A stretch of 62,780 bases of DNA from a virus. Taxonomy: Duplodnaviria; Caudoviricetes. The notes beneath the pieces were generated by a model that was given only the letters and a program-made list of their open reading frames with translations, did not search any database and was not told the DNA's origin. Below are positions 2,046 through 62,033 of the stretch, in pieces; the first letter of the stretch is position 1; each line of letters opens with the position of its first letter. Made by a program: the position numbers and the translations under genes. Where the stretch lies: positions 1-62,780 of the IMG/VR virus record IMGVR_UViG_3300007609_000001, one strand, 5' to 3'.

Positions 2046-2137
2046 CGCGCGTCGTTAGATCGCGCGGTTCGTTATGCGGGACAATGCCAGCCTGCCAGCC
2101 TGCCCATTCGTCTAATTAGACGTTTCGTTGATGTGGT

Positions 2138-2166
2138 TTGACTTGTCAGGCTAGATCATGGATAAT
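2138..2166 (+). promoter_or_regulatory. sigma70-like early promoter TTGACT-N17-GATAAT
   Basis: Near-consensus hexamers, 17-bp spacer, upstream of gene 2229. Confidence 0.7.
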
Positions 2167-2228
2167 TGATTCCGTGGTGGGGCAATCCTGCCCGCCACAA
2201 ACTGAAACTGAAAATGAGGGATTACATC

Positions 2229-2762
2229 ATGAGCACGAAGAAAGAGATTATCATCACCATTCGCAAGCATGGGCAGAAGATCGAACAGCATAATGCCGCG
2301 CTCGACGGGCGTGTAGCCGCTAGCGAGTTCGATACCGCATCTGCCGCGCAATCTACGCTCAACGCTAAATTGTGCATGAACTTGCTAGCAGGCAACGTTG
2401 ATCCGGCAATTAAGAAAGCCGCCGCCGAGCGCGGCGAATTGCGCAAGCTAATGCCGAGCGCAAGTAATGCTGATATCAACGCTATCAAGGTATGCGCGGG
2501 CATGGCGGCGACGGCATTGCGCAAGGGATGGCAGGAGCACGTAGACAGCGTGAAGCGGGTTCACGGCGTAACCCTGCAGGCATTGGCGAAAAGCGTAGCG
2601 GAAAAGAAGCCCGCGACTACGCCATTCAAGGAGCGCTATGTGCAGGCATGGGGCAAGCTGTACCAGCACGAGCGCGACCTAGCTAATCTGGAAGAACTCA
2701 AGGCCTTGTACAATCTTGCGATTGACGCGGGTTGGGTCAACCCGGATGAAGCGGATCACTAA
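2229..2762 (+). CDS. Hypothetical early protein (177 aa), monocistronic
   Basis: MSTKKEII start with GAGGG RBS; has its own promoter and terminator; flanked by two palindromes. Confidence 0.75.
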   Translation: MSTKKEIIITIRKHGQKIEQHNAALDGRVAASEFDTASAAQSTLNAKLCMNLLAGNVDPAIKKAAAERGELRKLMPSASNADINAIKVCAGMAATALRKGWQEHVDSVKRVHGVTLQALAKSVAEKKPATTPFKERYVQAWGKLYQHERDLANLEELKALYNLAIDAGWVNPDEADH

Positions 2763-2784
2763 TCGTCTAATTAGACGCTAACCT

Positions 2785-2812
2785 AGCCCGGCCTTGTGCC
2801 GGGCTTTTTTTT
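2785..2812 (+). terminator. Rho-independent terminator
   Basis: AGCCCGGC-cttgt-GCCGGGCT followed by a T run. Confidence 0.85.
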
Positions 2813-2859
2813 GTCCGCACGAAGCTGGCGCGCCCCCGCACCGCGCGCAATGTTTTTTC

Positions 2860-3423
2860 TGACCGTACCGTGACCGTTCCCGGTGGCGTAACAGTAATGG
2901 GCACTAACAGTGAAAGGCTTTATGACCGTACCGTGACCGTTCCCGGCAACAGTGACGGGCAGTTGAGGGCATTGTGACCGTAGGCGGCAGGCAGTTGAGA
3001 GCGTTGAAAGTGTCTAATTAGACGAAGTTTAGCGTGTTCTGGTATGACCGAACACGGGAAAGCTAAGCAGGGCGCGGGTTTCCGAGATATGCAAGTGGGC
3101 GTGTTCCGTCCATGTTCTGTCAGACCGAACACCGGAAAGCTAGCAGTGGCGCGGGTTGTTCCTAGATTAGAGTTAAGATTCAGTAGTTATTACTATCTAT
3201 CTATCTATCTATCATCACGCACTTCTCCGCTCAGCCTTGCCCGTCTGCCCTTTGCACGCGATTTACCCCTTCTCATGATCCAAAGCAATTCTCACATACA
3301 AAAAATTTCTTAACTAACCCATTGTTCTGCAACGATTTTCCTTGTTCGCTCCTACCGGAACAAATCCCACTTTATTTTTCATAACCCATTGTTTACAGTG
3401 ATGTTCCCTTGTTCGCTCCGACC
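2860..3423. repeat. Cluster of direct repeats in a non-coding region
   Basis: 24-bp TGACCGTACCGTGACCGTTCCCGG at 2860 and 2923; ~45-bp imperfect pair 3035-3080/3113-3157; ~42-bp imperfect pair 3315-3356/3382-3423; (CTAT)n near 3193. Confidence 0.8.
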
Positions 3424-3844
3424 CCTTCAATTCTCCCACTTACTCTCCCACTTGTCGCAACCTATAACCTTGTTTTCATTGCCTTTTTAGCTTTCGCCGT
3501 GACACTTTTTCCAAACGCTATTTAACATAATATAGACTAGCTTGCAGAGTTAATTCACATCCCTCTCCGCTCCCTTCTGCAAAACCACGTCAGGGCAGAA
3601 CACGCTAAGCCTTGCCGTGATTCGTCTAATTAGACAATTTACTCCATCGCCACTTAGCCCCACTTAGCCCTTATTCCCATTTGACTCGCCCGCCCTCGAT
3701 CTCCCACCATTTTCACCGATCTGGCTTGACTCGACATTACAGATCGCCAATATCAGGGCGAAACATCTCAGACCCTACCAACAATGTAATGCGCTCATGT
3801 TCCGTGTTTTCACCGCTTGCTCCCACCGGCTACACTTATCCCGT

Positions 3845-3873
3845 TTGACATCTCAAGCTAGGTATGCTATACT
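3845..3873 (+). promoter_or_regulatory. Strong sigma70 early promoter TTGACA-N17-TATACT with extended -10
   Basis: Near-perfect consensus ahead of the early gene array. Confidence 0.85.
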
Positions 3874-3953
3874 ATAGGCTCAGGCTGGGAGAAGCCCATG
3901 CCTGACATCCCAACCTTTAAGCAAACCGTCTAATTAGACGAAAGGAGAATGAC

Positions 3954-4292
3954 ATGAAAGACTTTACTTACAATGATGACGGCAACCTCGTGCCGCTTGG
4001 CACTTGTATCGAGGGCACGTTTCGCCCGCAAGACTTACTCCCTGCGTTCGTGAATCTGATCGACTTTGTCGCTCCGGCAGTATCAGCGCAAATTATGGTT
4101 AACGGCGGGGCTATCCCTGCCTACGCCGGTGAGGACGACGATCACCCGTGGTGGGAGAGTGAGGACTGCCAGTTTTGCATCGAGGAGATGTTTGACACGC
4201 TTAACGACTACGCGCCCGAGGGCTATTACTTCGGTGCCCATCCGGGCAACGGCAGTGACTTTGGGTTTTGGGAAATCAACGAGATCGTCTAA
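3954..4292 (+). CDS. Hypothetical acidic early protein
   Basis: 112 aa, AAAGGAG RBS, C-terminal GYYFGAHPGNGSDFGFW; the stop codon is the TAA inside a palindrome. Confidence 0.8.
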   Translation: MKDFTYNDDGNLVPLGTCIEGTFRPQDLLPAFVNLIDFVAPAVSAQIMVNGGAIPAYAGEDDDHPWWESEDCQFCIEEMFDTLNDYAPEGYYFGAHPGNGSDFGFWEINEIV

Positions 4293-4312
4293 TTAGACGA
4301 AAGGAGAATGAC

Positions 4313-4486
4313 ATGAGTATTGCAAGACAAGCGACGAACAAAGTAGTTGAGCTGGCCGAGGAAGGCATCCTTAACTGGGAGACTATCGCCAAGTGCTGCC
4401 TGTCCTACATGAGCGAGGACGATGTGCGAGACATGGCTGAGTGTGAGGGTTTGATCGACGAGGAGGACTTTGAAGATGAAGATTGA
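4313..4486 (+). CDS. Hypothetical acidic protein (57 aa)
   Basis: Same leader as gene 3954 (GTCTAATTAGACGAAAGGAGAATGACATG). Confidence 0.75.
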   Translation: MSIARQATNKVVELAEEGILNWETIAKCCLSYMSEDDVRDMAECEGLIDEEDFEDED

Positions 4487-4745
4487 AACCGTTGATGACT
4501 TCCGCGAAGCACTCGACGCGGGTGCTTATGTATGGCCGGGTGGGTACCCAATGTTCTTCATTGCCAGTGATGGTATGGCGCTGTCATTCAGCGCCGCTGA
4601 AGAAAACCGTGCGGAGATTGAGGACGCCCTAGAACGGCATGATCCGAGCGGTGGCTGGCTACTAGAGTACGCTACCGTGAACTGGGAGGATGACAACCTC
4701 CACTGCGCGCACACCGACGAGAAGATCGAGTGTGCTTACCCATAA
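4476..4745 (+). CDS. Hypothetical protein
   Basis: MKIETVDD...WPGGYPMFF; GAGGAGG upstream; overlaps the previous gene. Confidence 0.75.
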   Translation: MKIETVDDFREALDAGAYVWPGGYPMFFIASDGMALSFSAAEENRAEIEDALERHDPSGGWLLEYATVNWEDDNLHCAHTDEKIECAYP

Positions 4746-4808
4746 ACCCTGAATTTTCGGAGGTTGACTCCGAATTTACCGTCTAATTAGACAATTAAAA
4801 GGAGACCA

Positions 4809-5036
4809 GTGATGAATAAATCAGTTGTAGAAGCAACAGAGTTTAAGTTAGGCAACGACGAGGCTGCCCTAGTGATTAGCCCTGATAGTGTGAAGTTAGT
4901 CACGCCGGAGAAGGGCGACGACGAGGTAGTCACGCATAACGTGCAGTTCGCCGTGATGATGGCATACCTGCTGAGCACCGATGCTGAGTGGGTGAAGAGT
5001 GTAATTAAGCGATTCGAGGAGAGTTCCAATGACTAA
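4809..5036 (+). CDS. Hypothetical protein
   Basis: AAGGAG RBS after palindrome 4781. Confidence 0.7.
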   Translation: MMNKSVVEATEFKLGNDEAALVISPDSVKLVTPEKGDDEVVTHNVQFAVMMAYLLSTDAEWVKSVIKRFEESSND

Positions 5037-5346
5037 ACGTGTAGCAAATAAAGACGCCCGTGCCTATGTACGCCAGCGTGAAGAGTTCGAGGGTAGTAAT
5101 ACCTTTTCGATGTGGTACTACCAGCCAAAGATGTACGTGGTGTACTCATACGGCACTCACTGGCCGCTGTTTATCTATGCAGATGGTAAGTGGTACGAGA
5201 ACGCTGAGAAGTACAGTCCATCCACAAGTAAGCACCACTCACAACTTCACCCGCTATGCGAGACTGAGAAGCGTAATGCGCTAGATATGAAGTTGATCGC
5301 TGAATATGGTGTCGCTGAGTGGATGGCACGGAGACTGGCGGCCTGA
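5029..5346 (+). CDS. Hypothetical protein
   Basis: 105 aa, overlapping and probably translationally coupled; YVVYSYG...YSPSTSKH. Confidence 0.75.
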   Translation: MTKRVANKDARAYVRQREEFEGSNTFSMWYYQPKMYVVYSYGTHWPLFIYADGKWYENAEKYSPSTSKHHSQLHPLCETEKRNALDMKLIAEYGVAEWMARRLAA

Positions 5347-5397
5347 TGGCCGCCTCCTAATTAGGAAAGTGTCTAATTAGACAAAAGGAGTACAGTG

Positions 5398-5691
5398 ATG
5401 TTTGTAACCGACAAGATAGACACCGCCGTGCGTGTCACGCGCATTGAGCTGAGTGCCGATGACTGGGAGTTGTTCGACGACGCTGGCGGCGAGCGTGCAG
5501 AAGGTGCGGCGCGAGTGCTGAATAAAAAACTCACCGTCTGCGTGAACAAGGGACTCTCGCGTGAGGAAACCCGAGCGGAGATGGAGCTGCAGCTAAAACG
5601 CTATGAGGACTACGGCGCGACGGATACCGAGCCTCGCAATGTGTTGAGTATTTTGCTGGATAAATGCTACCCGCCGGAGTGGAGGTGCTGA
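5398..5691 (+). CDS. Hypothetical protein
   Basis: GGAGTACAGTGATG initiation region after two palindromes. Confidence 0.7.
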   Translation: MFVTDKIDTAVRVTRIELSADDWELFDDAGGERAEGAARVLNKKLTVCVNKGLSREETRAEMELQLKRYEDYGATDTEPRNVLSILLDKCYPPEWRC

Positions 5692-5711
5692 TATGAGTAA
5701 GGAGGCGAACA

Positions 5712-6104
5712 ATGATGACTAGCGCAGCACTATGCCTAGCATTGGCATTGTATTACGAGGCACGAGGCGAGCCGTTCGACGGGCAGTTAGCGGTGGCTGA
5801 GGTGGTGATGAACCGTGTCGAGAGCGAGCGGTTCCCTGATGATGTGTGTTCAGTTGTCACGCAAGGCGGTGAGCACCGTGATCAATGCCATTTTAGTTTT
5901 TACTGCGACGGCAAACCCGAACGCCCCGGCGATATGATCGCATGGCAGAAAGCACAAGACTTAGCGCAATGGGTGATTGCAGGAGAGGTGACGCTCGGCG
6001 TGCCTGCGACGCATTACCATGCTGAGTATGTGCATCCGTTCTGGGCAGATGAGTATGAGTACCTTGGGCAACTAGGACGACACAAGTTCTACGCTCAGAA
6101 GTAA
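5712..6104 (+). CDS. SleB-like cell wall hydrolase (Hydrolase_2)
   Basis: CLALALYYEARGEP...AVAEVVMNRV...FPDDVC...CHFSFYCDG...ATHYHA...HKFY. Confidence 0.88.
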   Translation: MMTSAALCLALALYYEARGEPFDGQLAVAEVVMNRVESERFPDDVCSVVTQGGEHRDQCHFSFYCDGKPERPGDMIAWQKAQDLAQWVIAGEVTLGVPATHYHAEYVHPFWADEYEYLGQLGRHKFYAQK

Positions 6105-6120
6105 CCGTCTAATTAGACAG

Positions 6121-6783
6121 ATGGGAGTAAATGAAATGGAAGTAGATATTAACGTGCTCAAGGAGCACTACCCCGACGAGTATCAGCGCTACTATGAGGA
6201 GTGGGCCGAGAGCCAGTGGGAGTTCATGGACGAGACTTGGGACTCTGATATGTACCAACTTGCTAAAGAGTGGCTTGAGGGTACCGGATGGGATGTATAC
6301 CTCGCAGAGTACCGGCTGTGCTACTCACAAGGCGATGGCGTGGGGCTTGATGCGTGTTTTGAATATACACACATGAGCGAGGAGAAGCGTAACGAGTTCC
6401 GTGAGCGCTTCCCGATGTGCGCTGAGATGATGCGCCGCGAGATGTTGTGGGTGAGCACTGTCGTGCAACGCCACTACGCTGCATCCCGTGTTGAGTGGGA
6501 AGCTGACTACCCCGGGTCTGAATACATTGACCTTTCACCTGAGCTGTTGATGGGCGGCATCTATGACGGTTTGCCCCTGTTCACTGCGGTGCAGCTCTGC
6601 GAGGAGGAAGGCGAGGACAACGCGGCTGAGTTTTTATACCAAGACATTATTGACGTTGAGTGCCGGCTCTATCGGTGGATGTTAGATGACGCTGAGCATA
6701 GAACCAGCGAGGAGATGTTCATTGAGTGGGCGCGCGATATGGAGGAAGTATTTGAAGTTGAGAAAGATCACGAGGTAGCTTAG
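6121..6783 (+). CDS. Hypothetical acidic protein
   Basis: 220-aa ORF after palindrome 6107; YSQGDGV motif; true start may be the second Met (6136). Confidence 0.7.
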   Translation: MGVNEMEVDINVLKEHYPDEYQRYYEEWAESQWEFMDETWDSDMYQLAKEWLEGTGWDVYLAEYRLCYSQGDGVGLDACFEYTHMSEEKRNEFRERFPMCAEMMRREMLWVSTVVQRHYAASRVEWEADYPGSEYIDLSPELLMGGIYDGLPLFTAVQLCEEEGEDNAAEFLYQDIIDVECRLYRWMLDDAEHRTSEEMFIEWARDMEEVFEVEKDHEVA

Positions 6784-6796
6784 CTACCAGAGGTGA

Positions 6797-6930
6797 GTGC
6801 GTAGTGCCTCGGGTTTTTCATGCCCTAAAACACGCACAGTCGGCACGAGCCATTCCCTCACGGCTGCTTGACGTAGCCGCTTTTCTTCCACTCGGGAACC
6901 GACCGGCTGGCCCACGAGACGGGCTTTTCT
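6797..6930 (+). ncRNA. Candidate structured intergenic RNA
   Basis: Nested stems GTCGG/CCGAC, CGAG/CTCG, CGGCTGC/GTAGCCG with pyrimidine-rich internal loops; flanking hairpins. Confidence 0.4.
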
Positions 6931-6965
6931 ATTCGTCTAATTAGACAATTCAAAGGAGTACAGTG

Positions 6966-7361
6966 ATGGGATATAGAAGTGATGTAGGCATAGCCTTAGC
7001 GTTCAAGACCAAGGGCGAGTGCGATAAGTTTATCATGGCGTACAAGCTCAAAGCGCCTGAGTTCTGGAACGAGATGGTAGTCGGGGCATGGGATCGCGTG
7101 GACGACCGCGTGTTAGTTGGGCACTACGATTGGATAAAGTGGCACCCTATTTATGATGATGTGAAGGGGGTGCTTGACATGATTGATCTGGCGGTCGAGA
7201 GCTGCAACGCTACGTACCGATTTGTCAGGGTGGGCGAGGAGTGCGACGACATCGAGACTATTGAGGAAGATGATAACGCCGATGAAAACACCCCGATGTT
7301 GTGCGACTACGTAGACGTGCGCCGGTCTGTGGATATATCAGCAGGTGAACCGTTAGACTAG
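6966..7361 (+). CDS. Hypothetical protein
   Basis: MGYRSDV...FVRVGEECDDIE; GGAGTACAGTGATG initiation region. Confidence 0.75.
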   Translation: MGYRSDVGIALAFKTKGECDKFIMAYKLKAPEFWNEMVVGAWDRVDDRVLVGHYDWIKWHPIYDDVKGVLDMIDLAVESCNATYRFVRVGEECDDIETIEEDDNADENTPMLCDYVDVRRSVDISAGEPLD

Positions 7362-7368
7362 AACTGAT

Positions 7369-7397
7369 TTGACATTTCAACTCAACTATGAGATAAT
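7369..7397 (+). promoter_or_regulatory. sigma70 promoter TTGACA-N17-GATAAT with extended -10
   Basis: Near-consensus, upstream of gene 7432 and the AAA operon. Confidence 0.75.
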
Positions 7398-7431
7398 AGT
7401 GTTTCACAATAGGAAAACTAGGAGTACAGCG

Positions 7432-7695
7432 ATGACGACTAAAACCAAAGAAGCACCAGCCAACAAGGCGGTGGTTAATATCAATTTCTCAGACTATGTG
7501 TTCCCTATGGAGGATGCGATCACGTTGATGCGTCTGATGGAGAAGGCGGAACGCTACGAGAGGAATTATCGCCCGGAAGAGAATGGCGGTGAGCAGGTCT
7601 ATGTGTGGTCGGGCGTGCCTGAACTGCGCGTGAACCTGATAAGTGGGGATGAGTACCTGCGAGGTAAGATCGCAGGCCACCCCGATTACGAGTAA
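7432..7695 (+). CDS. Hypothetical protein (87 aa)
   Basis: GGAGTACAGCGATG initiation region. Confidence 0.7.
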   Translation: MTTKTKEAPANKAVVNINFSDYVFPMEDAITLMRLMEKAERYERNYRPEENGGEQVYVWSGVPELRVNLISGDEYLRGKIAGHPDYE

Positions 7696-7730
7696 GTGTC
7701 TAATTAGACGATTCAATTAGGAGTACAGCG

Positions 7731-8762
7731 ATGACAACAGTAAACCTTAACGAAGCAGCACATCTTGTCCGCACCTGTGGACAGACTAATACATTTATCT
7801 TTCAGGGCGAACCGGGCATAGGCAAGTCTGCCATGCTCCATGCACTGGCGGATAAGTCTGACCTTGAGCCGCGCTACATCGACTGCGCCTTGCTCGACTT
7901 GGGCGATCTGCAAATGCCCCGTGTGGGTGAGTCGGTAGAGTTCGTGCCCAATAAGATGTTCGTCGGTGACAAGCCGCTGATCATCATGCTCGATGAGATT
8001 GGCAAAGCTATGCGCCCGGTGCAGAATGCCTTGCTAGCCTTGTTACTTGAACATCGCATCGGCAACCACAAGCTGCCCGAAGGCTCCGTGGTGTTTGGCA
8101 CGACCAACATGGCAAGCGATGGTGTGGGCGATATGATGCAGGCGCATGCCCGTAACCGTGTGACTTTTCTCACAGTTCGCAAGCCTGATGCCGATGAGTG
8201 GATTGACTGGGGTGTGGGTAACGACATTGACCCGACGATCATGGCGTGGGTTAAGGAGTACCCGCAATGCCTTGCCAGCTATGCTGACGACCCGGATGGT
8301 GCGACGGATAACCCGTACATCTTTACCCCGCGTAAGCAGCAGGCTGCCTTTGTCACGCCTCGATCCCTTGCACATGCCTCGCATATTGTTAAGCAGCGAG
8401 CCAACTTGACTGATGATGTGCTGATATCGGCATTGTCTGGCACGATTGGTGAGTCTGCCGCGCGTGATATGCAGGCGTTCCTGTCGGTGGCTGATGCGCT
8501 ACCGCCGTTCAAGGCAATCATTGAGAAGCCTGAGACTGTTCAGGTGCCTGACTCGCCCATTGCCTGTGTGATTCTGGCGCTGGGTGCGGTGACTCGCATG
8601 ACTGCCGAGAACGTCGATGCGTGGATGACATACCTCGCCCGCTTGCCCCGTGAGGTGCAGTTCATGTTTGCCCAACAGGCGATGCGTAGTCGCAGTGCAG
8701 CTGTGGTTGTGAAGTCAAAGCACTTCACGGACTGGGCACGCGAGAACAGCTGGGCAGTTTAG
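7731..8762 (+). CDS. MoxR/AAA_5-type AAA+ ATPase
   Basis: GEPGIGKS Walker A, IMLDEIGK Walker B, VQNALL, TTN sensor, TPRS. Confidence 0.9.
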   Translation: MTTVNLNEAAHLVRTCGQTNTFIFQGEPGIGKSAMLHALADKSDLEPRYIDCALLDLGDLQMPRVGESVEFVPNKMFVGDKPLIIMLDEIGKAMRPVQNALLALLLEHRIGNHKLPEGSVVFGTTNMASDGVGDMMQAHARNRVTFLTVRKPDADEWIDWGVGNDIDPTIMAWVKEYPQCLASYADDPDGATDNPYIFTPRKQQAAFVTPRSLAHASHIVKQRANLTDDVLISALSGTIGESAARDMQAFLSVADALPPFKAIIEKPETVQVPDSPIACVILALGAVTRMTAENVDAWMTYLARLPREVQFMFAQQAMRSRSAAVVVKSKHFTDWARENSWAV

Positions 8763-8788
8763 TTTCCTAATTAGGAAGGAGTACAGCG

Positions 8789-9943
8789 ATGAATAACTTA
8801 ACCCACGAGCAGCGACTACAACGTAGTCACATTTCCTTGATGCGCTCGCCCAACTTTGCTTTGTTGTCCGGCATTATCCTGCTGGGCACGAGCAGTGTGA
8901 AGGACGGTGTACCCACTGCGTACACTAACGGGCGTGACAAGGTGTATGGCCGGGAGTTCATGGACACGCTCGACGAGAAGCAGCTTAACTTTGTTGTGGC
9001 GCATGAGAACTTTCACGTTCTCTATAAGCATCTGACGACATGGCAGAAGCTATGGCAGGAGGATGCCAAGCTGGCTAATAGGGCGTGTGACTACGTGATC
9101 AACCAGCAGATACTTGACCTCGACCCGGGCAATAACTATGTGCGCTTGCCTGAGATCAACCTCTGCCTAGATGCGAAGTACCGAGGCTGGGATGCCAAGC
9201 AGGTCTATGACGACCTCAAGCAGCAGCAAGACGAAGGCGGCGGCTCTGGCGGTGACTCATTCGATGAGCATGGCTTTGACGATGCGCAGTCTATGAGTGA
9301 GCAGGAGCGCAAGGAGCTGGAGCAGGCGGTCGATCAAGCCGCGCGTCAGGGTGACATTCTGGCTGGGAAACTCAACGGTAAGACTAACCGTGATATCGGT
9401 GCGATACCTGAGCCGCAAGTCGACTGGCGTGAGCAGTTGCAAGACTTCGTGCAGTCTGTCTGTGCAGGGCGTGACAGCAGCACATGGCGCAGGCCTAACC
9501 GACGGTGGCTGGCTAGCGGGGCTTATATGCCTAGCCCCTACTCTGAGTCTATCGGCCCGGTGGTGGTCGCTGTGGATACCTCGGCGTCTATTAGTGCTGA
9601 GACTATCAACCAGTTCTTATCTGAGATTGTGAGCATCACTGAAGCCATGCCGCCTGAGCGCATCCATCTGTTGTACTGGGATACTAAGGTAGCCCGTGAG
9701 GAGGTGTATGTGCCCGGTGAGTATGAGTCTTTAGCCAGTTCAACCAAGCCTGCGGGTGGTGGGGGTACTGACCCGGGATGCGTCAAGCACTTTGTCGATG
9801 GCATGGGTACTAAGCCTGAGCTGGTGCTGGTGCTGACCGACGGGTACATATACGGCGACTGGCCGGACTTCAACGAGCCTACTTTGTGGGTGTCAACAAG
9901 CAACCGTGTCTCGCCTTATGGCAAGACTATTCACATTAAGTAA
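8789..9943 (+). CDS. Metallopeptidase-like plus VWA domain protein (DUF2201-like)
   Basis: VAHENFH (HExxH), NRACDYVIN, MIDAS VDTSAS, GGGGTDP, LTDGY. Confidence 0.88.
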   Translation: MNNLTHEQRLQRSHISLMRSPNFALLSGIILLGTSSVKDGVPTAYTNGRDKVYGREFMDTLDEKQLNFVVAHENFHVLYKHLTTWQKLWQEDAKLANRACDYVINQQILDLDPGNNYVRLPEINLCLDAKYRGWDAKQVYDDLKQQQDEGGGSGGDSFDEHGFDDAQSMSEQERKELEQAVDQAARQGDILAGKLNGKTNRDIGAIPEPQVDWREQLQDFVQSVCAGRDSSTWRRPNRRWLASGAYMPSPYSESIGPVVVAVDTSASISAETINQFLSEIVSITEAMPPERIHLLYWDTKVAREEVYVPGEYESLASSTKPAGGGGTDPGCVKHFVDGMGTKPELVLVLTDGYIYGDWPDFNEPTLWVSTSNRVSPYGKTIHIK

Positions 9944-9971
9944 TCGTCTAATTAGACAAAGGAGTATAGCA

Positions 9972-10829
9972 ATGAGTATGTCAATTAGTTCATCTGCAAT
10001 GTTAGTTGATTTGTCAATCAGTTCATGGACGGCGCGTAAGCTCGACAAGGGCGTTACCGACGAGGTGAACACTAGCAAGCACGCCAGCCAGCAGGCATCG
10101 CGTGTCAATAAAAACCTACTGCCCGGTGTGGAGCAGCTCGACGGCATCGTCAAGCACGCTGCGATGGTGCGAAACTGGGTAGCTACCCGCACGCTGCCAT
10201 GGTCTGACTATGGCCCACGGCTGATCACCACGGATAAGTTCTTTGACTTCAAGCGTGAGCTAGACCAGTACGAGCGTGAGTTCCATGAGAAGGTGCAGAG
10301 CTTTCTGGATGTATACCCCACGCTCATTAGTATGCAGGCGTTCAAGCTAGGTGATATGTTTGACCGCGAGGAGTACCCTGATGTGTCTGAGCTTGCGAAT
10401 AAGTTTAGGTTCAACGTAGCCTACCTGCCCATACCGGAGACAGGAGACTTTCGTGTGGACATTGGCCGTGAGGCGCTTGATGAGGTTCGCTCGCAGTATG
10501 CACGGGAGTACGAGCAGCGCTTGGAGAACGCGATGAACGAGGTTCGAGATAGAATACTCAACTCATTACGTCACCTGTCTGAGCGGTTCACCGACAACGA
10601 CGACGGCTCGCGTAAGCGCTTTCGCAATAATGTGCTTGAGAACTTTGCCGAGACAATCGCCTCGGTGCGTGAGCTTAACCTGACTAAGGACGCCGCCATT
10701 GATGCTATGGCGCTTGAGGCTGAGGAGGCAATACGCGGTGTTGATGTTGATAGTTTGAAAGAAAGTAAGGAGGTTCGTGAGGATGTACGTGAGCGTGTTA
10801 ACTCAGTTCTTGATGCCTTTTCATTCTGA
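9972..10829 (+). CDS. DUF3150-like protein
   Basis: 285 aa, WTARKLD...TLPWSDYGPRL...FDREEYP; typical neighbour of AAA/VWA pairs. Confidence 0.6.
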   Translation: MSMSISSSAMLVDLSISSWTARKLDKGVTDEVNTSKHASQQASRVNKNLLPGVEQLDGIVKHAAMVRNWVATRTLPWSDYGPRLITTDKFFDFKRELDQYEREFHEKVQSFLDVYPTLISMQAFKLGDMFDREEYPDVSELANKFRFNVAYLPIPETGDFRVDIGREALDEVRSQYAREYEQRLENAMNEVRDRILNSLRHLSERFTDNDDGSRKRFRNNVLENFAETIASVRELNLTKDAAIDAMALEAEEAIRGVDVDSLKESKEVREDVRERVNSVLDAFSF

Positions 10830-11083
10830 TGCTTAGGGTATTTAGAGACGAGGATGGTGAGTGGTGGGCTGAGCCTTTACTCAAAGATACATGGGGTAGT
10901 GAGACCCAACGTGTAAGTTCTATTGATGAGTTTGATGACGAGGTGGCTGACCGCCTCGCCATTCTTTTGCACGTTGACCATAACGACCATGTAGAGGGTA
11001 TAGGTCGGCGCATTAGTAAAGATACGTTTTGGCTTTTCCACGAGGGTAAAGACTCGTGGTTACTTTCAGCTTTCAAGGAGTAG
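10829..11083 (+). CDS. Hypothetical protein
   Basis: TGATG-coupled ORF. Confidence 0.65.
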   Translation: MLRVFRDEDGEWWAEPLLKDTWGSETQRVSSIDEFDDEVADRLAILLHVDHNDHVEGIGRRISKDTFWLFHEGKDSWLLSAFKE

Positions 11084-11084
11084 T

Positions 11085-11435
11085 GTGATGAAGAAGTTAT
11101 TAGTGACGATGTGCATGTCAGTTTTTCTGCTGGCAGCTAACCCGGCCCCGGCGCAGGCGCAAGGCAGCCTGACTGAGGATATGTGTAAACACGTCTATAC
11201 ATTGTCTGACAATGTGATGTTATTGCGGCAATACGGCATGCCTATGCACGAGGTAAGAGCCATGCTGCTTACTCAGGTGGACTCGGAGATCGCCGCTGAC
11301 ATTATTAAGGCAGTTATATCTGATGCCTATGCCATGCCTCGGCTGCACAACGACGACATGATTCAGTCTGAGGCGACTGAGTTTGCTAATAAGAACTACC
11401 GCGAGTGCCTCTTGGCATTTGGCGATGCGACATAA
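11085..11435 (+). CDS. Hypothetical exported protein
   Basis: Sec signal MKKLLVTMCMSVFLLAANPAPAQA; two Cys in the mature part. Confidence 0.7.
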   Translation: MMKKLLVTMCMSVFLLAANPAPAQAQGSLTEDMCKHVYTLSDNVMLLRQYGMPMHEVRAMLLTQVDSEIAADIIKAVISDAYAMPRLHNDDMIQSEATEFANKNYRECLLAFGDAT

Positions 11436-11444
11436 AGGTGCGCT

Positions 11445-11708
11445 ATGAGTGATAAAAATAACGTTGAGAAAATCTACCCGGTGCATGCGCTTAGAAACCC
11501 GGACAAGCTGTTGGAGTTGTGCAAGGGAGACTTCGAGGTCGTGTGTGTTTTGGGTGTTAACAAGTCAGGTGCTTTGACGGCAAGGGCAACGGATAACATG
11601 ACAGTCGCTGAATTGGTCTTTTACATGGAGCAGGTCAAGGCGATTCTGCTCGATGGCAGAGATGATGACGACGATGACGATGATGACGATGATGAGGACG
11701 ATGAGTGA
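11445..11708 (+). CDS. Hypothetical protein with poly-Asp tail
   Basis: 87-aa ORF followed by palindrome 11711. Confidence 0.7.
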   Translation: MSDKNNVEKIYPVHALRNPDKLLELCKGDFEVVCVLGVNKSGALTARATDNMTVAELVFYMEQVKAILLDGRDDDDDDDDDDDEDDE

Positions 11709-11743
11709 TCGTCTAATTAGACGATTAGCATGGAGGTCATGGT

Positions 11744-12268
11744 ATGGCTACTAAAGTATGTGAGCAATGTGCTGAGGAGCTTCCCATTAAAATGTTCTGG
11801 GGGGAGCACCGTAAGCGGATGAAGGTGTGTACGCCCTGCAGGCGCAAGGAGGCACGGCGAGCTAAGCGTCGCCGGGCTAGGATGCGTGAGTTGCAGGCAC
11901 AAAAACGTGAGGAGATAAAGCGCGTGGTGCAGGAGCAAGATAGAAAGATGCGGGAGACCGCGATGTACGCTGGCGTGTTGGAGCTTAACAAGATTATCTC
12001 TAGGATCGACAACAAGCTCAAGAAGTACAGCGACAAGGTAGCCTATTGTGAGGGCAGTGCTCGCACTGAGGCGGCGATTGAGTATCAGTGGAAACGGCGG
12101 GCGTATTATCAGGAGATCAAAGACTTACTGTATGCTGATGCTGCGCGCGGGATAGATCGCCCGCTTGAGTTTTATTTGAGCAATACATATTTACTTCACA
12201 AGCATGGGTTTCCTGTGGTAGTAATTGACGCTCACCCAGATGAGGATATAGACAATGCCGATAGTTGA
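11744..12268 (+). CDS. Hypothetical protein with CxxC...CxxC and a basic coiled coil
   Basis: CEQC...CTPC. Confidence 0.65.
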   Translation: MATKVCEQCAEELPIKMFWGEHRKRMKVCTPCRRKEARRAKRRRARMRELQAQKREEIKRVVQEQDRKMRETAMYAGVLELNKIISRIDNKLKKYSDKVAYCEGSARTEAAIEYQWKRRAYYQEIKDLLYADAARGIDRPLEFYLSNTYLLHKHGFPVVVIDAHPDEDIDNADS

Positions 12269-12491
12269 GCCTGCGAGAATCAGCGAAGTTCGCCCCGATG
12301 GCAGCCGGGTTATTCTGCCTGAGTCCGAGGTGCGTATAGTCCATGCGCGCACGGGTGTTGAGTACAGTTGCGAGGAGGATGCACTGGCTGATGTGCAGAA
12401 CCCTGAGACAGATACTTGCGAGGAGGACATCTGCCGTAGTACAACTATTCGTGTACTGCAGGGGTTAAGTTTTGACGGGGATGCTGGATAG
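12255..12491 (+). CDS. Hypothetical protein
   Basis: 78 aa, GAGGA RBS. Confidence 0.65.
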   Translation: MPIVEPARISEVRPDGSRVILPESEVRIVHARTGVEYSCEEDALADVQNPETDTCEEDICRSTTIRVLQGLSFDGDAG

Positions 12492-12518
12492 AGAACTCCC
12501 CCCTTAGTAGCTGAGGTG

Positions 12519-12565
12519 TGTGAGTAGCGTGTCCTCCTGTATCGCTGTACTCCGCGCTACTCACA
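12519..12565 (+). ncRNA. Candidate antisense sRNA hairpin against phage translation-initiation regions
   Basis: Perfect 11-bp stem TGTGAGTAGCG/CGCTACTCACA; the loop holds ATCGCTGTACTCC, the reverse complement of GGAGTACAGCGAT. Confidence 0.65.
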
Positions 12566-12641
12566 AGAACACGGCGCGCTGGCCGTCGTAGCTACATGCC
12601 AGCACTTATTAAAATATGACCGTACCCACAACGGATGACCA

Positions 12642-12836
12642 ATGCCTAAGCACTACAATCATAAGCGAGGTGAGCATCACCACGCCGCTCGCCTGACTGA
12701 ATCCGAAGTACGCCGCATGCGTGAGTTGAAACAAGACTACGACTTGTGTGTGCGTTGTATAGCCATTTTGTTCGACCAACCCTACCCCACAGCGTGGGAT
12801 GCTATTAACTACAACACATGGAGGCATGTGAAATGA
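12642..12836 (+). CDS. Small HTH-like DNA-binding protein (HNH C-terminal-type domain)
   Basis: RGEHHHAARLTESEVRRMREL...TWRHV. Confidence 0.65.
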   Translation: MPKHYNHKRGEHHHAARLTESEVRRMRELKQDYDLCVRCIAILFDQPYPTAWDAINYNTWRHVK

Positions 12837-13237
12837 GTGACGATAAGCAATACGTATCTGACGGGAGCACAGCGAGCTATTACGAGTTGCCTGAGCGGGC
12901 GCGTGAGCTTCAGGACTTGATTAGCTATAGAAACATGAACGCCCAAGACGGTGAGATTTTTCGTGCGATTTATCGCAAAGGGCTGGCTAAGCACAGCGAT
13001 GCGCTACGCGATGCGAAGAAGGTGAAGTTCTACGCGGATGCTGAAGTCGAACGCTTAGAGAAGTTAAGCCAGAGTGAGTCTGGTGGTGTAGATTTTCCAT
13101 CACTTTCGGGTAAGCCTGAAACGATTGTGACGGGAGGAGAGGTAGCGATAATGGACTTAAAGCGTGATGTTAAAGCGCTGACGCACCGTGTCTGGCGGCT
13201 TGAGGTTAAGACGGGCGTTGTTAAAAATTCGCTTTGA
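12833..13237 (+). CDS. DUF3310/SaV-like protein (tentative)
   Basis: GSTASYY...GEIFRAIYR...RDAKKVKFY pattern. Confidence 0.5.
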   Translation: MSDDKQYVSDGSTASYYELPERARELQDLISYRNMNAQDGEIFRAIYRKGLAKHSDALRDAKKVKFYADAEVERLEKLSQSESGGVDFPSLSGKPETIVTGGEVAIMDLKRDVKALTHRVWRLEVKTGVVKNSL

Positions 13238-13285
13238 TTTTAGCCTCATAGGCTATTTGTTGAACATTATTTATACAGGAGACAC

Positions 13286-13549
13286 GTGATGAACAAACAT
13301 ACTGAGCTGCTTAGATTGTATAACCAGTGGCGGCGAGGAGACATCGAGCAGCTTGATTTCACGGCGAAAGAGATAGGAGAGGCGATTGATGGGGTGCTTG
13401 AAGAACGGGCTGAGATGCTAGACGCCTTGGAGATGGGCATATCGACAAAAACCGCAAACGAGGCTGTCAGGCGGTGTGCAGAAGATGTTGCTAGATATGT
13501 TGTTGCTAAAGCCAAAGGGGAGTGGCCAAAGGAGAGTAGGGATGAGTAG
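13286..13549 (+). CDS. Hypothetical protein
   Basis: AGGAG RBS; YNQWRRG. Confidence 0.65.
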   Translation: MMNKHTELLRLYNQWRRGDIEQLDFTAKEIGEAIDGVLEERAEMLDALEMGISTKTANEAVRRCAEDVARYVVAKAKGEWPKESRDE

Positions 13550-13620
13550 TTTAAGTCTTCGTCAGTTTGCTCACTCATAGTGGGCAGAAAACGATTTTGT
13601 TAAACCTAAGGAGGACAAAG

Positions 13621-13815
13621 GTGAGTGAGTGTCACCGGGTAGTTGGTTCAGACAACGGAAACGCTAAGCTAACTGAGGCTGATGTGAGGTTGATTCGTGC
13701 GCTTTATGCGCAGGGCGGCTTTACTTATTACGATATTGCAGATAAGTTTGATGTCCATTTTGAAACAATACGTCGAATAATTAAGCGCAGATTATGGGCT
13801 CATGTAGATGACTAA
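13621..13815 (+). CDS. Small HTH DNA-binding protein (paralogue of 12642)
   Basis: GTG start after AGGAGG; GSDNGNAKLTEADVRLIR...IADKFDVHFETIRRII...WAHV. Confidence 0.7.
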   Translation: MSECHRVVGSDNGNAKLTEADVRLIRALYAQGGFTYYDIADKFDVHFETIRRIIKRRLWAHVDD

Positions 13816-13857
13816 TATGGCGGATACCCCCGCTATGGGCCCACGTAGGAGACAAAT

Positions 13858-14154
13858 ATGGCTGATACCCCCGAGAAAAAGGTAAAAAAGAAAGTCGTTG
13901 AGATTCTAAAACAATACGGCGCTTATTACTTCTACCCTGTTACTGGTGGGTTTGGTGCCAGCGGGGTGCCTGACATCATTGCTTGCTACAACGGCAAGTT
14001 CCTTGGCATCGAGGTTAAGGCAGACGCAAAGAAGCGTGGCCCGACAGCGTTGCAGCAGAAAAACTTGGATCAGATCAATGCGACAGGTGGTGTCGCAGTC
14101 GTGATCGACGCTAACAATATAGATGAAGTAGAAGCCTTGATGGCGGGGTTGTAG
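13858..14154 (+). CDS. VRR-NUC / Holliday junction resolvase-like nuclease
   Basis: PEKKVK...GVPDII...GIEVKA...PTALQ. Confidence 0.85.
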   Translation: MADTPEKKVKKKVVEILKQYGAYYFYPVTGGFGASGVPDIIACYNGKFLGIEVKADAKKRGPTALQQKNLDQINATGGVAVVIDANNIDEVEALMAGL

Positions 14155-14157
14155 GCC

Positions 14158-14262
14158 ATGTGCGGTGTTTTGAGCTACGCCATAGCTGCGCTAATCATTG
14201 TGGTTTGCGCGTTTACTACGCTCATCGCCGGGGTGCTGGCGTGGGCGGTGTTTAAAAAATAG
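14158..14262 (+). CDS. Small membrane peptide (34 aa, not in the ORF track)
   Basis: MCGVLSYAIAALIIVVCAFTTLIAGVLAWAVFKK fills the gap before polA. Confidence 0.45.
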   Translation: MCGVLSYAIAALIIVVCAFTTLIAGVLAWAVFKK

Positions 14263-14272
14263 GAGTACAGCG

Positions 14273-16237
14273 ATGCGAAAGATATACCTAGACTTTGAGA
14301 CCTACTGGTCGCAAGACCACAGCCTGACTAAGATTCACCCGGTCGAGTACGTCATGCACCCGGAGACTGAGATTCAGTCGGTTGCCATTAAAGAAGGCGA
14401 TGACGGCGAGACGTTTGTGCTGTTCGGTGAAAAAGATATTCAGGCGTGGGTGGATCATACTGACTTCTCAGATGCGATGTTGATTGGGCATAACATGGCA
14501 GGCTTCGATGCGATGATCTGCGCATGGCGGTTCGGCATTAAACCGAAAGCATGGAGTTGCACGCTAGCCATTGCCCGTGCGCTGGGGTACGCCAAGACAG
14601 TTGGCGGATCACTGAAAAAGGTTGCAGCTGCTCTGGAGCTCGGAGCCAAGCTAGACCTTGAGGCGACTAACACTAAAGGCAAGAAGCTCGCTGATTTCAC
14701 ACCCGAAGAGATTGAGTCTATGCGCACCTACAACGTGGTGGATACTGAGCTGTGCGCCGGGATATTCAATAAGCTAGCGCCCCAACTGGGCATTCGTGAG
14801 TTGCGTTTGATTGACATGACAATCCGCATGTTAGTCGAGCCACAGTTTGAGCTGGACGAAGAGCTACTTGAGCGCACGCTGGCGGAGATTAAACAGACGC
14901 AACGCGATGTGTTGATTAAAGTTGCGCACTCGCTACTGCCTGAACTATCTGGCGCGATGGAGGGTCTGGTCGAGACTGACACTTACAAGCAATTACTCCC
15001 CGAGGAGTTGATCGAGCAGGCTAAGAAGGTGCTGGCTAGCGCGCCGAAGTTCGCTAAGTTCTTAGAAAGTAAGGGCGTGCCGGTGCCGATGAAGCCCTCG
15101 CCGTCTAACCCTGAAAAGCAAATCCCCGCCCTTGCTAAGACAGATGAGGACTTTCTCGCGCTGCAGGAGCATGAGGACTTTGAAGTTGCCGCCGCTGCCA
15201 GCGCACGCCTTGGCGTGAAGAGCACTATACTTGAGACGCGCATCGAGCAGTTCTTACGCTGCGGTCGGGCTATCGGTGGGCGCATGCCCATCGCACTTAA
15301 CTATTATGGAGCAGACACTACCGGTCGCTGGTCGGGTACGATGAAGATGAACCAGCAGAACCTGCCTCGGGTAAACCCGCATAAGCCCAAGCCCTCTGAT
15401 GCACTGCGTAAATGTTTGCTTGCGCCGAGACGCAAAAGCGTTGTGGTGGCTGACTTGTCGGGTATTGAGTTGCGAGTCAACCACTTTTTGTGGAAAGAAG
15501 TCGCCAGCATGCAGCTGTTTAACGACGACCCGGCTAAGGCCGATCTGTATAAAGACTTCGCCAGTAAGTTGTATAAGAAAGACTGGGATGAGGTGACAAA
15601 GGCTGAGCGACAGGTTGGCAAGGTTGCACACCTTGGGTTGGGGTACGGCGCAGGCGCGGCTACATTCCAGAAAGTTGCAAAGATAATGGGCGGTGTAGAC
15701 CTGAGCCTGAAAGAGTCTGAGGAGGTTGTTGCAAAATGGCGAAACGAGTATGGGCGTATCGCAGCGGGTTGGCGTACCTGCCATGACCGGCTATCTGATA
15801 TTTACTACGGGCATTATGGAATTAACATTGACCCGTGGGGTTTGTGCCAGACTATTGAGGGGGGGATAAAGACTCCGCTTGGCATGATCCGCTACCCTGA
15901 TCTGCGTCAAGAAACCAACGAGGAAACCGGGCGTACGGAGTGGGTGTATGGTCATGGGCGCAAGAAGGCACGGATATACGCTGGGAAAGTCACGGAAAAC
16001 ATTGTGCAACATTTAGCCCGTGAGGCGATGGCTGACATGATGTTGGAAATTCAGAAGTGCTACCCCATTGCTCACACGGTACACGATGAGATTATTCTTG
16101 TTGTAGCCGAGCACGACGACGAAGAAGCGCTGGCTTATATGCAGTCTATTATGCGTCGGGGCGTGAAGTGGTGGCCTGATCTGGTAACATGGTCTGAAGG
16201 GAGCACAGCTCTTAACTATGGCGAGGCTAAGGACTAA
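14273..16237 (+). CDS. polA: DNA polymerase family A with 3'-5' exonuclease
   Basis: YLDFETY (ExoI), GHNMAGFD, TTGRWSG, ADLSGIELR (motif A), KVAHLGLGYG (B), TVHDEI (C). Confidence 0.95.
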   Translation: MRKIYLDFETYWSQDHSLTKIHPVEYVMHPETEIQSVAIKEGDDGETFVLFGEKDIQAWVDHTDFSDAMLIGHNMAGFDAMICAWRFGIKPKAWSCTLAIARALGYAKTVGGSLKKVAAALELGAKLDLEATNTKGKKLADFTPEEIESMRTYNVVDTELCAGIFNKLAPQLGIRELRLIDMTIRMLVEPQFELDEELLERTLAEIKQTQRDVLIKVAHSLLPELSGAMEGLVETDTYKQLLPEELIEQAKKVLASAPKFAKFLESKGVPVPMKPSPSNPEKQIPALAKTDEDFLALQEHEDFEVAAAASARLGVKSTILETRIEQFLRCGRAIGGRMPIALNYYGADTTGRWSGTMKMNQQNLPRVNPHKPKPSDALRKCLLAPRRKSVVVADLSGIELRVNHFLWKEVASMQLFNDDPAKADLYKDFASKLYKKDWDEVTKAERQVGKVAHLGLGYGAGAATFQKVAKIMGGVDLSLKESEEVVAKWRNEYGRIAAGWRTCHDRLSDIYYGHYGINIDPWGLCQTIEGGIKTPLGMIRYPDLRQETNEETGRTEWVYGHGRKKARIYAGKVTENIVQHLAREAMADMMLEIQKCYPIAHTVHDEIILVVAEHDDEEALAYMQSIMRRGVKWWPDLVTWSEGSTALNYGEAKD

Positions 16238-23777: not shown

Positions 23778-23803
23778 GCCCCCGGTTCGCCGGGGGCTTT
23801 TTT
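23778..23803 (+). terminator. Rho-independent terminator where the two arms converge
   Basis: GCCCCCGG-ttcg-CCGGGGGC-TTTTTT. Confidence 0.9.
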
Positions 23804-61785: not shown

Positions 61786-62033
61786 TAGTTTGATTCCTTT
61801 TTGAGCTGTTCGCGATGCCGTTTTAAGTCTTCGCGATGCCGTTTTAAGTCTTCGCGAAATTTTAATTCTTTTTCAGTAGGAAGCACTAAAGGCCATTGAG
61901 TGTTTGCGTTCCACAACGCCCACGCTTCAGCTTCTACTCTGCTAGGGCCAGCGTATTTAGGGGAGATGCGACTAATAAACGCCTGAACATAAAGCGAAAA
62001 TAGCATCAACTTGCCTCGAATCCACAACCGCAT
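61785..62033 (-). CDS. Hypothetical protein with a 21-bp tandem duplication
   Basis: REDLKRH x2 (61809-61850). Confidence 0.5.
   Translation of the reverse strand: MRLWIRGKLMLFSLYVQAFISRISPKYAGPSRVEAEAWALWNANTQWPLVLPTEKELKFREDLKRHREDLKRHREQLKKESN

Follow-up and report, generated by a model that had tools for sequence, protein, structure and literature searches.

Introduction

RNase P cuts the antisense RNA c4 out of a longer transcript, and the P4 CI and N15 CB RNAs act on transcription termination. T4 RegA is a protein translational repressor that occludes the start regions of many early mRNAs with a loose sequence preference. To our knowledge, antisense RNAs that block a ribosome-binding site (RBS) are known in phages solely for single adjacent targets of temperate phages (c4 and its relatives). 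Here we describe a folded element at positions 12500 to 12612 of IMGVR_UViG_3300007609_000001, a complete virus record from IMG/VR that is 62,780 bp long, carries direct terminal repeats (DTRs) and is referred to below, at its full length, as the window. One loop of the element is complementary to a sequence that spans the Shine-Dalgarno (SD) region and the start codon of several genes on the same strand, and the loop and these start sites have changed together in a sister clade. The element is very probably a conserved + strand RNA structure and its loop likely pairs with the start sites as part of its function. With somewhat less assurance, we favour the reading that it is an antisense RNA that would block translation initiation of a small regulon, like P1 c4 in action and not a member of the c4 family.

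According to the account in PMC12197685, loop sequences of the P1/P7 c4 RNA pair around the RBS and block translation, and c4 is encoded on the strand of its target and not as an overlapping antisense RNA. In both c4 and the element a loop is complementary to RBS regions of the same strand, which is a likeness of action and not of membership; the covariance model of the c4 family is not matched by the element in an Rfam cmscan. c4 acts on one adjacent antirepressor (icd/ant) operon in temperate phages and plasmid-prophages, whereas the predicted targets here are seven dispersed genes that include an ATPase and the DNA polymerase. Unlike the temperate c4 phages, the window phage is a DTR phage without recognised lysogeny genes in the 33 open reading frames (ORFs) scanned. 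The element and RegA would both be phage-made and start-region occluding, but the specificity of the element would rest on Watson-Crick pairing over 10-13 nt. Bacterial trans-acting small RNAs (sRNAs) are similar in having one short seed, several mRNA targets and pairing at start regions; they differ in that they typically pair imperfectly with unrelated sites, while the element would pair with an identical, co-evolving start sequence of the phage's own genes.

A second point of comparison is the Start-Associated Sequences (SAS/ESAS) of the Cluster K mycobacteriophages. As described in PMC3203893, PMC11373665 and PMC12699233, this is a 13-bp asymmetric, SD-containing motif located 3-9 bp before the starts of 13-19 non-structural genes, and about half of the copies have an inverted repeat just upstream. 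In the same sources its function was unknown in 2011 and was still called 'ill-defined' in 2024-2025. The layout of SAS recurs in the window: a motif of ~13 bp that contains the SD, is asymmetric, has one orientation, often has an inverted repeat upstream and precedes non-structural genes. The sequences of the two motifs are unrelated, as are the phages, the hosts and the hairpins.

The P2 hairpin and its loop

A first-pass annotation of the window had described a hairpin with an 11-bp perfect stem and a 25-nt loop at 12519-12565, and this is confirmed in the sequence. The stem, P2, joins T12519-G12529 to C12555-A12565 in 11 perfect pairs and leaves 12530-12554 as the loop.

12519..12565, + strand: P2 hairpin, 11-bp stem and 25-nt loop (read from the sequence; covariation)
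12541..12553, + strand: anti-start-site segment AUCGCUGUACUCC (DNA ATCGCTGTACTCC), the exact reverse complement of GGAGTACAGCGAT

The sequence GGAGTACAGCGAT is found exactly at 7421, 7720, 8778 and 14262 on the + strand, and the next base is always G, making ATG. The proposal that four genes have an SD-to-start sequence to which the 3' part of the loop is exactly reverse-complementary was therefore correct, as were the near-matches listed with it, GGAGTACAGTGAT at 5387 and 6955 (one G.U) and GGAGTATAGCAAT at 9961 (one wobble and one mismatch). When up to two mismatches to the 13-mer are allowed, 10 matches are observed against a mean of 1.40 and a largest value of 5 in 100 dinucleotide-preserving shuffles, none of which reaches 10; two of the 10 matches (12022 and 12864) are inside ORFs and are not gene starts. 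The loop core GCUGUACUCC (12544-12553) is identical in nine of the ten distinct clade A sequences (the clades are defined below), and the remaining one carries GCUGUACCCC.

The 5' half of the loop had been credited with two further pairings. The reverse complement of 12528-12542, a stretch made up of the loop 5' half, two stem bases and the base next to the stem, is ATACAGGAGGACACG, and it matches ATACAGGAGACACG at 13273-13286 with one extra G; additionally, AGGAGGACA (site 13609) lies upstream of the GTG of the gene at 13621. Both pairings are real in the window and are specific to it. The 5' half (CCUCCU in the window) is just C-rich and is variable in relatives, and it was rejected for this reason as a second conserved seed. 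The pairings with 13273-13286 and 13609 carry little weight because the 5' half is not conserved.

The folded RNA element and its conservation

P2 is one helix of a larger element that the first-pass annotation did not see. The element is ~113 nt long and begins 9 nt past the stop codon (12489-12491) of the upstream gene, which encodes 78 amino acids (aa). Its parts, in addition to P2, are:

12500..12612, + strand: whole element (P1, P2, P3 and the P1-loop/P3-loop pairing), matched by covariance models at 105.9 bits (R1) and 96.8 bits (R2)
12502..12516, + strand: P1, CCUU/GAGG, four pairs (extendable to six) with loop AGUAGCU; three of the four pairs changed on both sides, 100% of cells paired
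12507..12512, + strand: P1-loop GUAGCU, 5' partner of the loop-loop helix, pairing with 12590-12595
12578..12603, + strand: P3, GCUGGC/GCCAGC, 14-nt loop; five of six pairs invariant and one G-C/G-U, all cells paired
12590..12595, + strand: P3-loop AGCUAC, 3' partner of the loop-loop helix, pairing with 12507-12512

Relatives were collected in several ways. Relatives of the DNA polymerase in IMG/VR gave 35 loci, and the intergenic region is common at the nucleotide level to three of these (L018, L027 and L030), in which it is conserved better than the flanking genes. Five sequences were used to build a covariance model, which added two copies that are more distant, in L011 and L015 (E ~3e-5). 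A search with a pattern from the invariant block of P3 yielded 11 viral and 27 metagenome stretches. A first scan of the collection with a short GC-rich 16-mer had matched at least 120 stretches, and one real homologue (L050) was among the matches listed. Altogether the homologues of the element comprise 22 distinct sequences, 10 in clade A, which includes the window, and 12 in clade B.

The helices were assessed in 19 distinct sequences. The alignment was fitted to P1-P3 by the covariance model and so favours P1-P3, while the loop-loop helix is absent from the model. Over all helices, 99.6% of 474 alignment cells are paired and 14 of 26 pairs have changed on both sides. None of 500 shuffles reaches the observed values, and sliding the partners by 1-3 columns leaves 29-49% of cells paired. 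In P2, nine of the ten modelled pairs have changed on both sides and 98.8% of cells are paired. P3 is conserved in sequence and shows no covariation. The loop-loop helix reads GUAGCU/AGCUAC in clade A and GUAGUC/GACUAC in clade B; two of its six pairs co-vary and 100% are paired. The expectation that the hairpin would be kept in relatives is thus borne out, with compensatory changes in the stem next to an invariant 3' loop segment.

The pair types include G.U in 31 cells. Because these cells would be A.C on the other strand, the folded molecule is a + strand RNA or, less likely, + strand single-stranded DNA. The hairpin had been placed on the strand of its targets, so that a + transcript would be antisense to them, and the G.U pairs agree in assigning the fold to + strand RNA.

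A cmscan of the whole window against Rfam at gathering scores returned no matches. At E values up to 10, the region 12440-12680 matched snoR103 and PtaRNA1 alone, both on the minus strand with E ~5, which is chance level and unrelated to the element. The first-pass annotation had called the hairpin analogous to, but not recognisably, P1 c4 or P4 CI, and this wording stands because no Rfam family matches. ARAGORN found no tRNA or tmRNA genes in the window; the pairing of the P1 and P3 loops resembles the tRNA elbow in idea alone. As far as sequence comparison reaches, the element is a new RNA family, absent from Rfam.

Start sites complementary to the loop

Gene starts in the window and in relatives were called by a crude rule of ORF plus SD, and some are mis-called, such as the ATPase start of L011 in the cross-clade duplex comparison given below. 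The predicted targets in the window, with the energies of their duplexes with the loop, are:

5387..5399, + strand: SD-to-start sequence GGAGTACAGTGAT of a 97-aa gene (5398-5691), one G.U; -23.5 kcal/mol
6955..6967, + strand: SD-to-start sequence GGAGTACAGTGAT of a 131-aa gene (6966-7361); -26.8 kcal/mol; motif kept in the L018 and L027 orthologues
7421..7433, + strand: exact 13-mer, 87-aa gene (7432-7695); -27.2 kcal/mol
7720..7732, + strand: exact 13-mer, AAA-ATPase gene (7731-8762); -26.6 kcal/mol
8778..8790, + strand: exact 13-mer, 384-aa gene (8789-9943; a VWA protein in the first-pass annotation; PHROG 1314); -25.6 kcal/mol
9961..9973, + strand: GGAGTATAGCAAT of a 285-aa gene (9972-10829), a weaker predicted target with one wobble and one mismatch; -18.0 kcal/mol
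13273..13286, + strand: start region of an 86-aa gene (13289-13549), complementary to 12528-12542 with one bulge; window-specific
14262..14274, + strand: exact 13-mer, DNA polymerase gene (14273-16237), the best duplex; -30.2 kcal/mol

The six genes that carry the motif range from -23.5 to -30.2 kcal/mol; over 96 start regions the median is -13.2. At a cut-off of -23 the loop has seven start regions, and 300 shuffled loops average 0.73, with a largest value of 5 and none that gives 7. The one region of the seven beyond the six motif genes is that of a leftward gene at 62033, which uses AGGAGGAC to pair with the 5' half of the loop, the half that is not conserved. No inhibitory hairpins that the pairing could open were seen in the target start regions.

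Other repeated start sequences are present. AAGGAGAATGACATG occurs twice in the window (3954 and 4313) as a start sequence that is non-complementary to the loop. Similarly, AAGGAGACCAG(C/T)(A/G)ATG, also non-complementary to the loop, occurs in the window (4812) and in clade B loci (L011 at 5161, 6939 and 15146; L015 at 14600). As read from these start regions, extended start motifs are a general habit of the phage group.

The loop and the start sites in relatives

Whether the loop and the spacer sequences co-vary in related phages had been set beforehand as a test of the antisense proposal. The proposal passed it: the sister clade has changed both, and they are still complementary. In clade A the complement of the loop is GGAGTACAGC, and the loci with at least 3 kb of upstream sequence hold 2-7 sites of GGAGTACAGC (at most one mismatch), nearly all of them 0-3 nt before an ATG or GTG. 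In clade B the loop is UGAGAACUCC and its complement is GGAGTTCTCA. The clade B start of the AAA-ATPase gene is GGAGTTCTCAACATG in L011 (also in L158 and L193, which have an identical element sequence) and GGAGTTCTCAAATG in L015 (also in L159, again with an identical element sequence), following the pattern GGAGTTCTCA(A)(C)ATG. L015 and L159 have two further near-identical starts, and L163 and L175 have one or two such sites at genes that were not identified. The AAA-ATPase start matches the local loop in every locus that holds this gene start, in both clades (the window, L018, L027, L050, L011 and L015).

Clades A and B have different bases at four of the six spacer positions; this is true of the loop as well as of the start sites, and neither clade's motif was found at the gene starts of the other. 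When the clade B loop is paired with clade A start regions no duplex is better than about -15 kcal/mol, compared with -24 to -30 kcal/mol for the clade A loops.

L016 and L019 keep the upstream flanking gene, and a search with model R2 with filters off found no element after it; their start-site spacers are heterogeneous with no common motif, and on the polymerase tree they fall outside the A+B group. The same search of L016, L019, L009, L021, L029, L034 and L035 (99,839 bases) gave no credible match (best E 0.48), so the element is absent from them or unrecognisable. L009 lies inside the A+B group, and for this locus the negative extends to only 3.7 kb upstream of the polymerase gene. The tree was midpoint-rooted and left out L018 (frame below 550 aa) and the partial polymerases of L020, L022, L026, L029-L034 and L036. 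Exact 10-mer reverse complements of GGAG-start sites in L025 and in L034-36 (at 13936) were set aside as chance-level matches inside coding sequence. In L018 (9034-10654), the polymerase frame that begins at the motif-bearing GTG was called open for just 74 aa, yet the protein is aligned in full by tblastn; a frameshift, an intervening sequence or an error of assembly could be the cause.

Genomic context and the intergenic palindrome

The window has rightward genes from ~2 kb to 23.5 kb and leftward genes from 23.8 kb to its end. The rightward set consists of small early genes, the AAA-ATPase gene and its 384-aa partner, and genes for the DNA polymerase, an exonuclease, a helicase and a primase. 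A nucleotide search of 11700-14300 against 50,697 phage records gave no match and the polymerase protein is at most 34% identical to those of named phages (Rhizobium phage RHph_TM3_14A and Pseudomonas phages phiR18 and KPP25), so no close relative among cultured phages is available. Among the PHROG matches of the scanned ORFs there was no antirepressor, repressor or integrase, and no RNA polymerase gene was recognised among them, most of these ORFs being without annotation. The small genes flanking the element matched no PHROG family. The 2667-aa ORF at 23802-31805 (minus strand) has PHROG matches that are all of unknown function and cover its C-terminal third.

7369..7397, + strand: sigma-70-like promoter (TTGACA, 17 nt, TG-GATAAT; 11/12), directly upstream of the 87-aa gene at 7432
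2111..11721, no strand assigned: palindrome core TCTAATTAGA, 13 copies (mostly CGTCTAATTAGACG) and two copies of CCTAATTAGG, between rightward early genes only
5372-5381, 6936-6945, 7699-7708, 9947-9956 and 11712-11721, no strand assigned: example sites, each a perfect palindrome

The promoter is the sole strong promoter-like site within 4-18 kb. The 13 matches to the palindrome compare with 1.45 expected, and none of 100 shuffles reaches 13. Five copies lie 2-12 nt upstream of a motif-bearing SD, and the palindrome is conserved in L011, L018 and L027. In clade B the palindrome follows P3 directly, at a place taken in other relatives by strong hairpins that are unrelated; because it occupies this position, the palindromes are suggested to be RNA hairpins (processing, 3' ends) or operator sites for a phage regulator. 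The hairpins that follow the element in relatives (at the position of 12613-12641 in the window) are strong, have stems of 7-13 bp and are unrelated in sequence; none is present in the window, L030 or L168. Just past this hairpin is the motif GACCGTACCC, which is kept even in L016 and L019, both of which are without the element.

Between the element and the polymerase gene, at 13621-14154, are two small ORFs with HNH/HTH-endonuclease PHROG matches. This stretch differs between relatives, and the distance from the element to the polymerase gene varies from 1.4 to 3.4 kb; the two variations suggest mobile endonuclease insertions.

Cluster K phages and a third, aquatic group

The SAS consensus GGGATAGGAGCCC has one match with two mismatches in the window (minus strand, 35309), and 66 of 100 shuffles do as well. 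In the Cluster K phages themselves an inverted copy of the motif is known: Pope et al. (2011) reported a single SAS copy in opposite orientation in four K1 phages. In Adephagia (JF704105) we find 16 SAS copies on the + strand and one on the minus strand. The inverted copy (L194, 33683-33695) is presented as a 10-nt apical loop, CCUCCUAUCC, by a long hairpin of the + strand (33655-33725; z = -4.1), which sits in the 430-nt gap between gp92 and gp93. Late transcription appears to initiate in this gap, according to PMC11373665. Five K1-type phages (Adephagia, Anaya, LastHope, Peanam and Amelie) share this hairpin and loop, with wobble changes and a single compensatory one, and Keshu and Pixie have a homologous hairpin without the antisense loop. 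An antisense RNA for SAS is not mentioned in those parts of the literature that were searched, which is no proof that none is in print.

A third and much larger group is formed by distant aquatic relatives with 37% polymerase identity; more than 572 IMG/VR stretches match their polymerase.

L035 11900-12060 and homologous spots in L203-L280, after the polymerase gene: third-group structured RNA (compensatory changes)

This RNA lies 100-150 nt past the polymerase gene and has a long stem in which 10 of 21 pairs show compensatory changes (nine sequences). It does not match model R2 and has no match in Rfam, and its structure is different from that of the window element. The last bases of its loop, immediately next to the 3' arm, are CGUUCUCC, the placement seen in P2 of the window, and in many loci the commonest start-site 8-mer is GGAGAACG, opposite CGUUCUCC. 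In L248 the loop GGUUCUCC stands opposite four starts of GGAGAACC(A), and in L210 and L211 loops of the GUUCUCUUUCCUC type stand opposite the starts GAGGAAAGAGAA and GAGAAAGAGAA. The association is uneven: in 15 of 45 distinct loci, three or more start regions show complementarity of at least 8 nt, the long loci L206, L207, L249 and L250 have none or one, and many loci are too short to judge.

Proposed mechanism and alternatives

The element is probably an RNA switch for the translation of the genes that share the start sequence. Because its neighbours are all rightward and no terminator precedes it, a + strand RNA with the element is almost certainly made as part of the rightward transcripts; the element would be produced within a polycistronic transcript and would either act inside that transcript or be cut out of it. 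With their loops paired, P1 and P3 would form a compact unit, and the P2 loop would stay exposed. The 3' part of this loop (the core GCUGUACUCC, extended to 13 nt in the window phage) would then pair with the SD, the spacer and the AUG of + strand genes of the phage. The predicted regulon consists of three small early genes, the AAA-ATPase gene, its 384-aa partner, the DNA polymerase gene and, weakly, the 285-aa gene. Pairing over both the SD and the start codon would most likely act by keeping the 30S subunit off these mRNAs through a duplex of 10-13 bp, and translation would be limited or shut down once transcripts bearing the element accumulate. The first-pass annotation had proposed a phage antisense RNA that controls a regulon. 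The fold, its strand, the complementarity and the joint change of loop and start sites support that proposal in part, and we infer from them that the RNA accumulates, acts in trans and represses. The outcome may be a shut-off, a control of dosage or a different effect, for example protection or processing.

Several observations weigh against antisense repression by this element. The fold energy of 12490-12610 is unexceptional (z = -1.29 on the + strand and -0.73 on the minus strand), and a scan of the window found neither a sigma-70-like promoter nor a + strand intrinsic terminator flanking the element; the Hfq-type sRNAs are defined by a promoter of their own and a Rho-independent terminator with a U-tail, and the element has neither in the window. 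A variable hairpin follows P3 in 17 of 20 relatives, and it is missing in the window and, where present, has no U-tract. The polymerase gene, the best predicted target, is downstream of the element, which is a poor fit to a simple 'early shut-off'. The co-variation that separates clades A and B counts in effect as a single evolutionary event, though one with four positions per partner, and the clade A variant GCUGUACCCC (L168/L188) is unmatched, as the start sites there stay GGAGTACAGC. In L011 and the two loci that share its element sequence, the ATPase start alone among gene starts matches the loop. The start motif most often shared there is GGAGACCAGC (two genes, and a third with GGAGACCAGT, which differs by one base), and it lacks complementarity to the loop; start motifs can thus come to be shared without the RNA as well. 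Finally, in Cluster K, Pixie has 18 SAS copies on the + strand and none on the minus strand (49 kb scanned); its SAS is kept without an inverted copy, and the Cluster K motif is therefore independent of the antisense copy.

In one alternative the element is a cis-acting part of the polycistronic mRNA, either a processing or stabilising signal or the leader of the small gene at 12642-12836, with the likeness of its loop to an inverted start site a by-product. The close spacing to the upstream stop codon and the want of a promoter and terminator of its own fit a cis role, and the variable hairpin after the element, at the spot where other loci have the palindrome, fits processing or 3'-end formation. 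Additionally, the blocks around P3 are sequence-invariant, as would be expected for a protein or RNase site. The by-product could have come, for example, from recombination among repeated intergenic cassettes, without any pairing function, and such cassettes (palindrome plus start motif) could seed an inverted copy. However, a cis role leaves unexplained both the invariant 3' loop segment beside a changing stem and the joint change of four positions in the loop and the distant ATPase start in clade B. The start region of the downstream gene is also non-complementary to the loop, and a hairpin stands between them in most relatives. We consider this reading, a cis-acting role together with a by-product origin of the loop, unlikely. 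It is also conceivable that the loop does pair and that the outcome is not repression: the pairing could protect the mRNA from nuclease or host defence, guide a processing enzyme or be bridged by a phage RNA-binding protein. The pairing evidence applies equally to such outcomes, the essential polymerase gene is an odd best target for pure shut-off, and the conserved tRNA-like compaction by the P1 and P3 loops is suggestive of a protein or RNase that recognises the fold. On the other hand, a duplex over the SD and AUG is a textbook block of 30S binding and no activating arrangement was seen at the target start regions, and outcomes of this kind are held to be quite unlikely.

A signal at the DNA level, whether an origin, an N4-type promoter formed by a single-strand hairpin or the target of a sequence-specific DNA-binding protein that reads the start motif in either direction, would suit an intergenic element just upstream of the replication module in which P1 is a short stem with a small loop. 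A protein that binds duplex DNA would even account for the inverted copy and the co-variation of the sites without RNA, but a duplex site needs no hairpin loop with compensatory stem changes. The 31 G.U cells and the strand-specific pairing favour a single-stranded + strand fold, and the motif always runs exactly from SD to ATG, which points to translation; that no RNA polymerase gene was recognised in the ORFs scanned is a weak point, since most are unannotated. A DNA signal thus appears very improbable. The faintest of the alternatives, and one hardly credible, is a function of the minus strand, where the loop might be a decayed or real gene start or a decoy RBS. The complement of the loop does look like an SD, a spacer and an ATG or GTG in several relatives (L027 GGAGTACAGCATG, L030 GGAGTACAGCGTG), but in the window ATA stands in place of ATG, as the first-pass annotation had remarked in setting a gene start aside. 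The frames that follow differ among relatives, the G.U pairs would become A.C mismatches and the neighbouring genes are all on the + strand. On manual reading, a minus-strand mini-ORF was rejected for having no conserved start or frame.

Implications

If the antisense reading is true, the element would represent antisense control of a regulon of several genes whose common mark is a start sequence evolving with the RNA. It would be found in an apparently lytic, uncultured phage group, would belong to a folded RNA family that is not in Rfam and would be an RNA counterpart of T4 RegA. It may also be, and we put this forward tentatively as somewhat short of an even case, that anti-start-site RNAs are a widespread and unrecognised form of phage translation control in which marked start sequences and a structured RNA on the same strand co-evolve. 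This would fit the window family with its two loop/start-site pairs, the third aquatic group and the K1 hairpins. It suggests a simple rule for finding others: an over-represented extended start motif together with a single same-strand inverted copy in a hairpin loop.

The window element offers a testable mechanism for SAS, which has been known since 2011 without an assigned function, and if the wider reading is true the purpose of SAS, a 15-year-old question, would become directly testable. The finding may have a wider meaning for how phages time translation.

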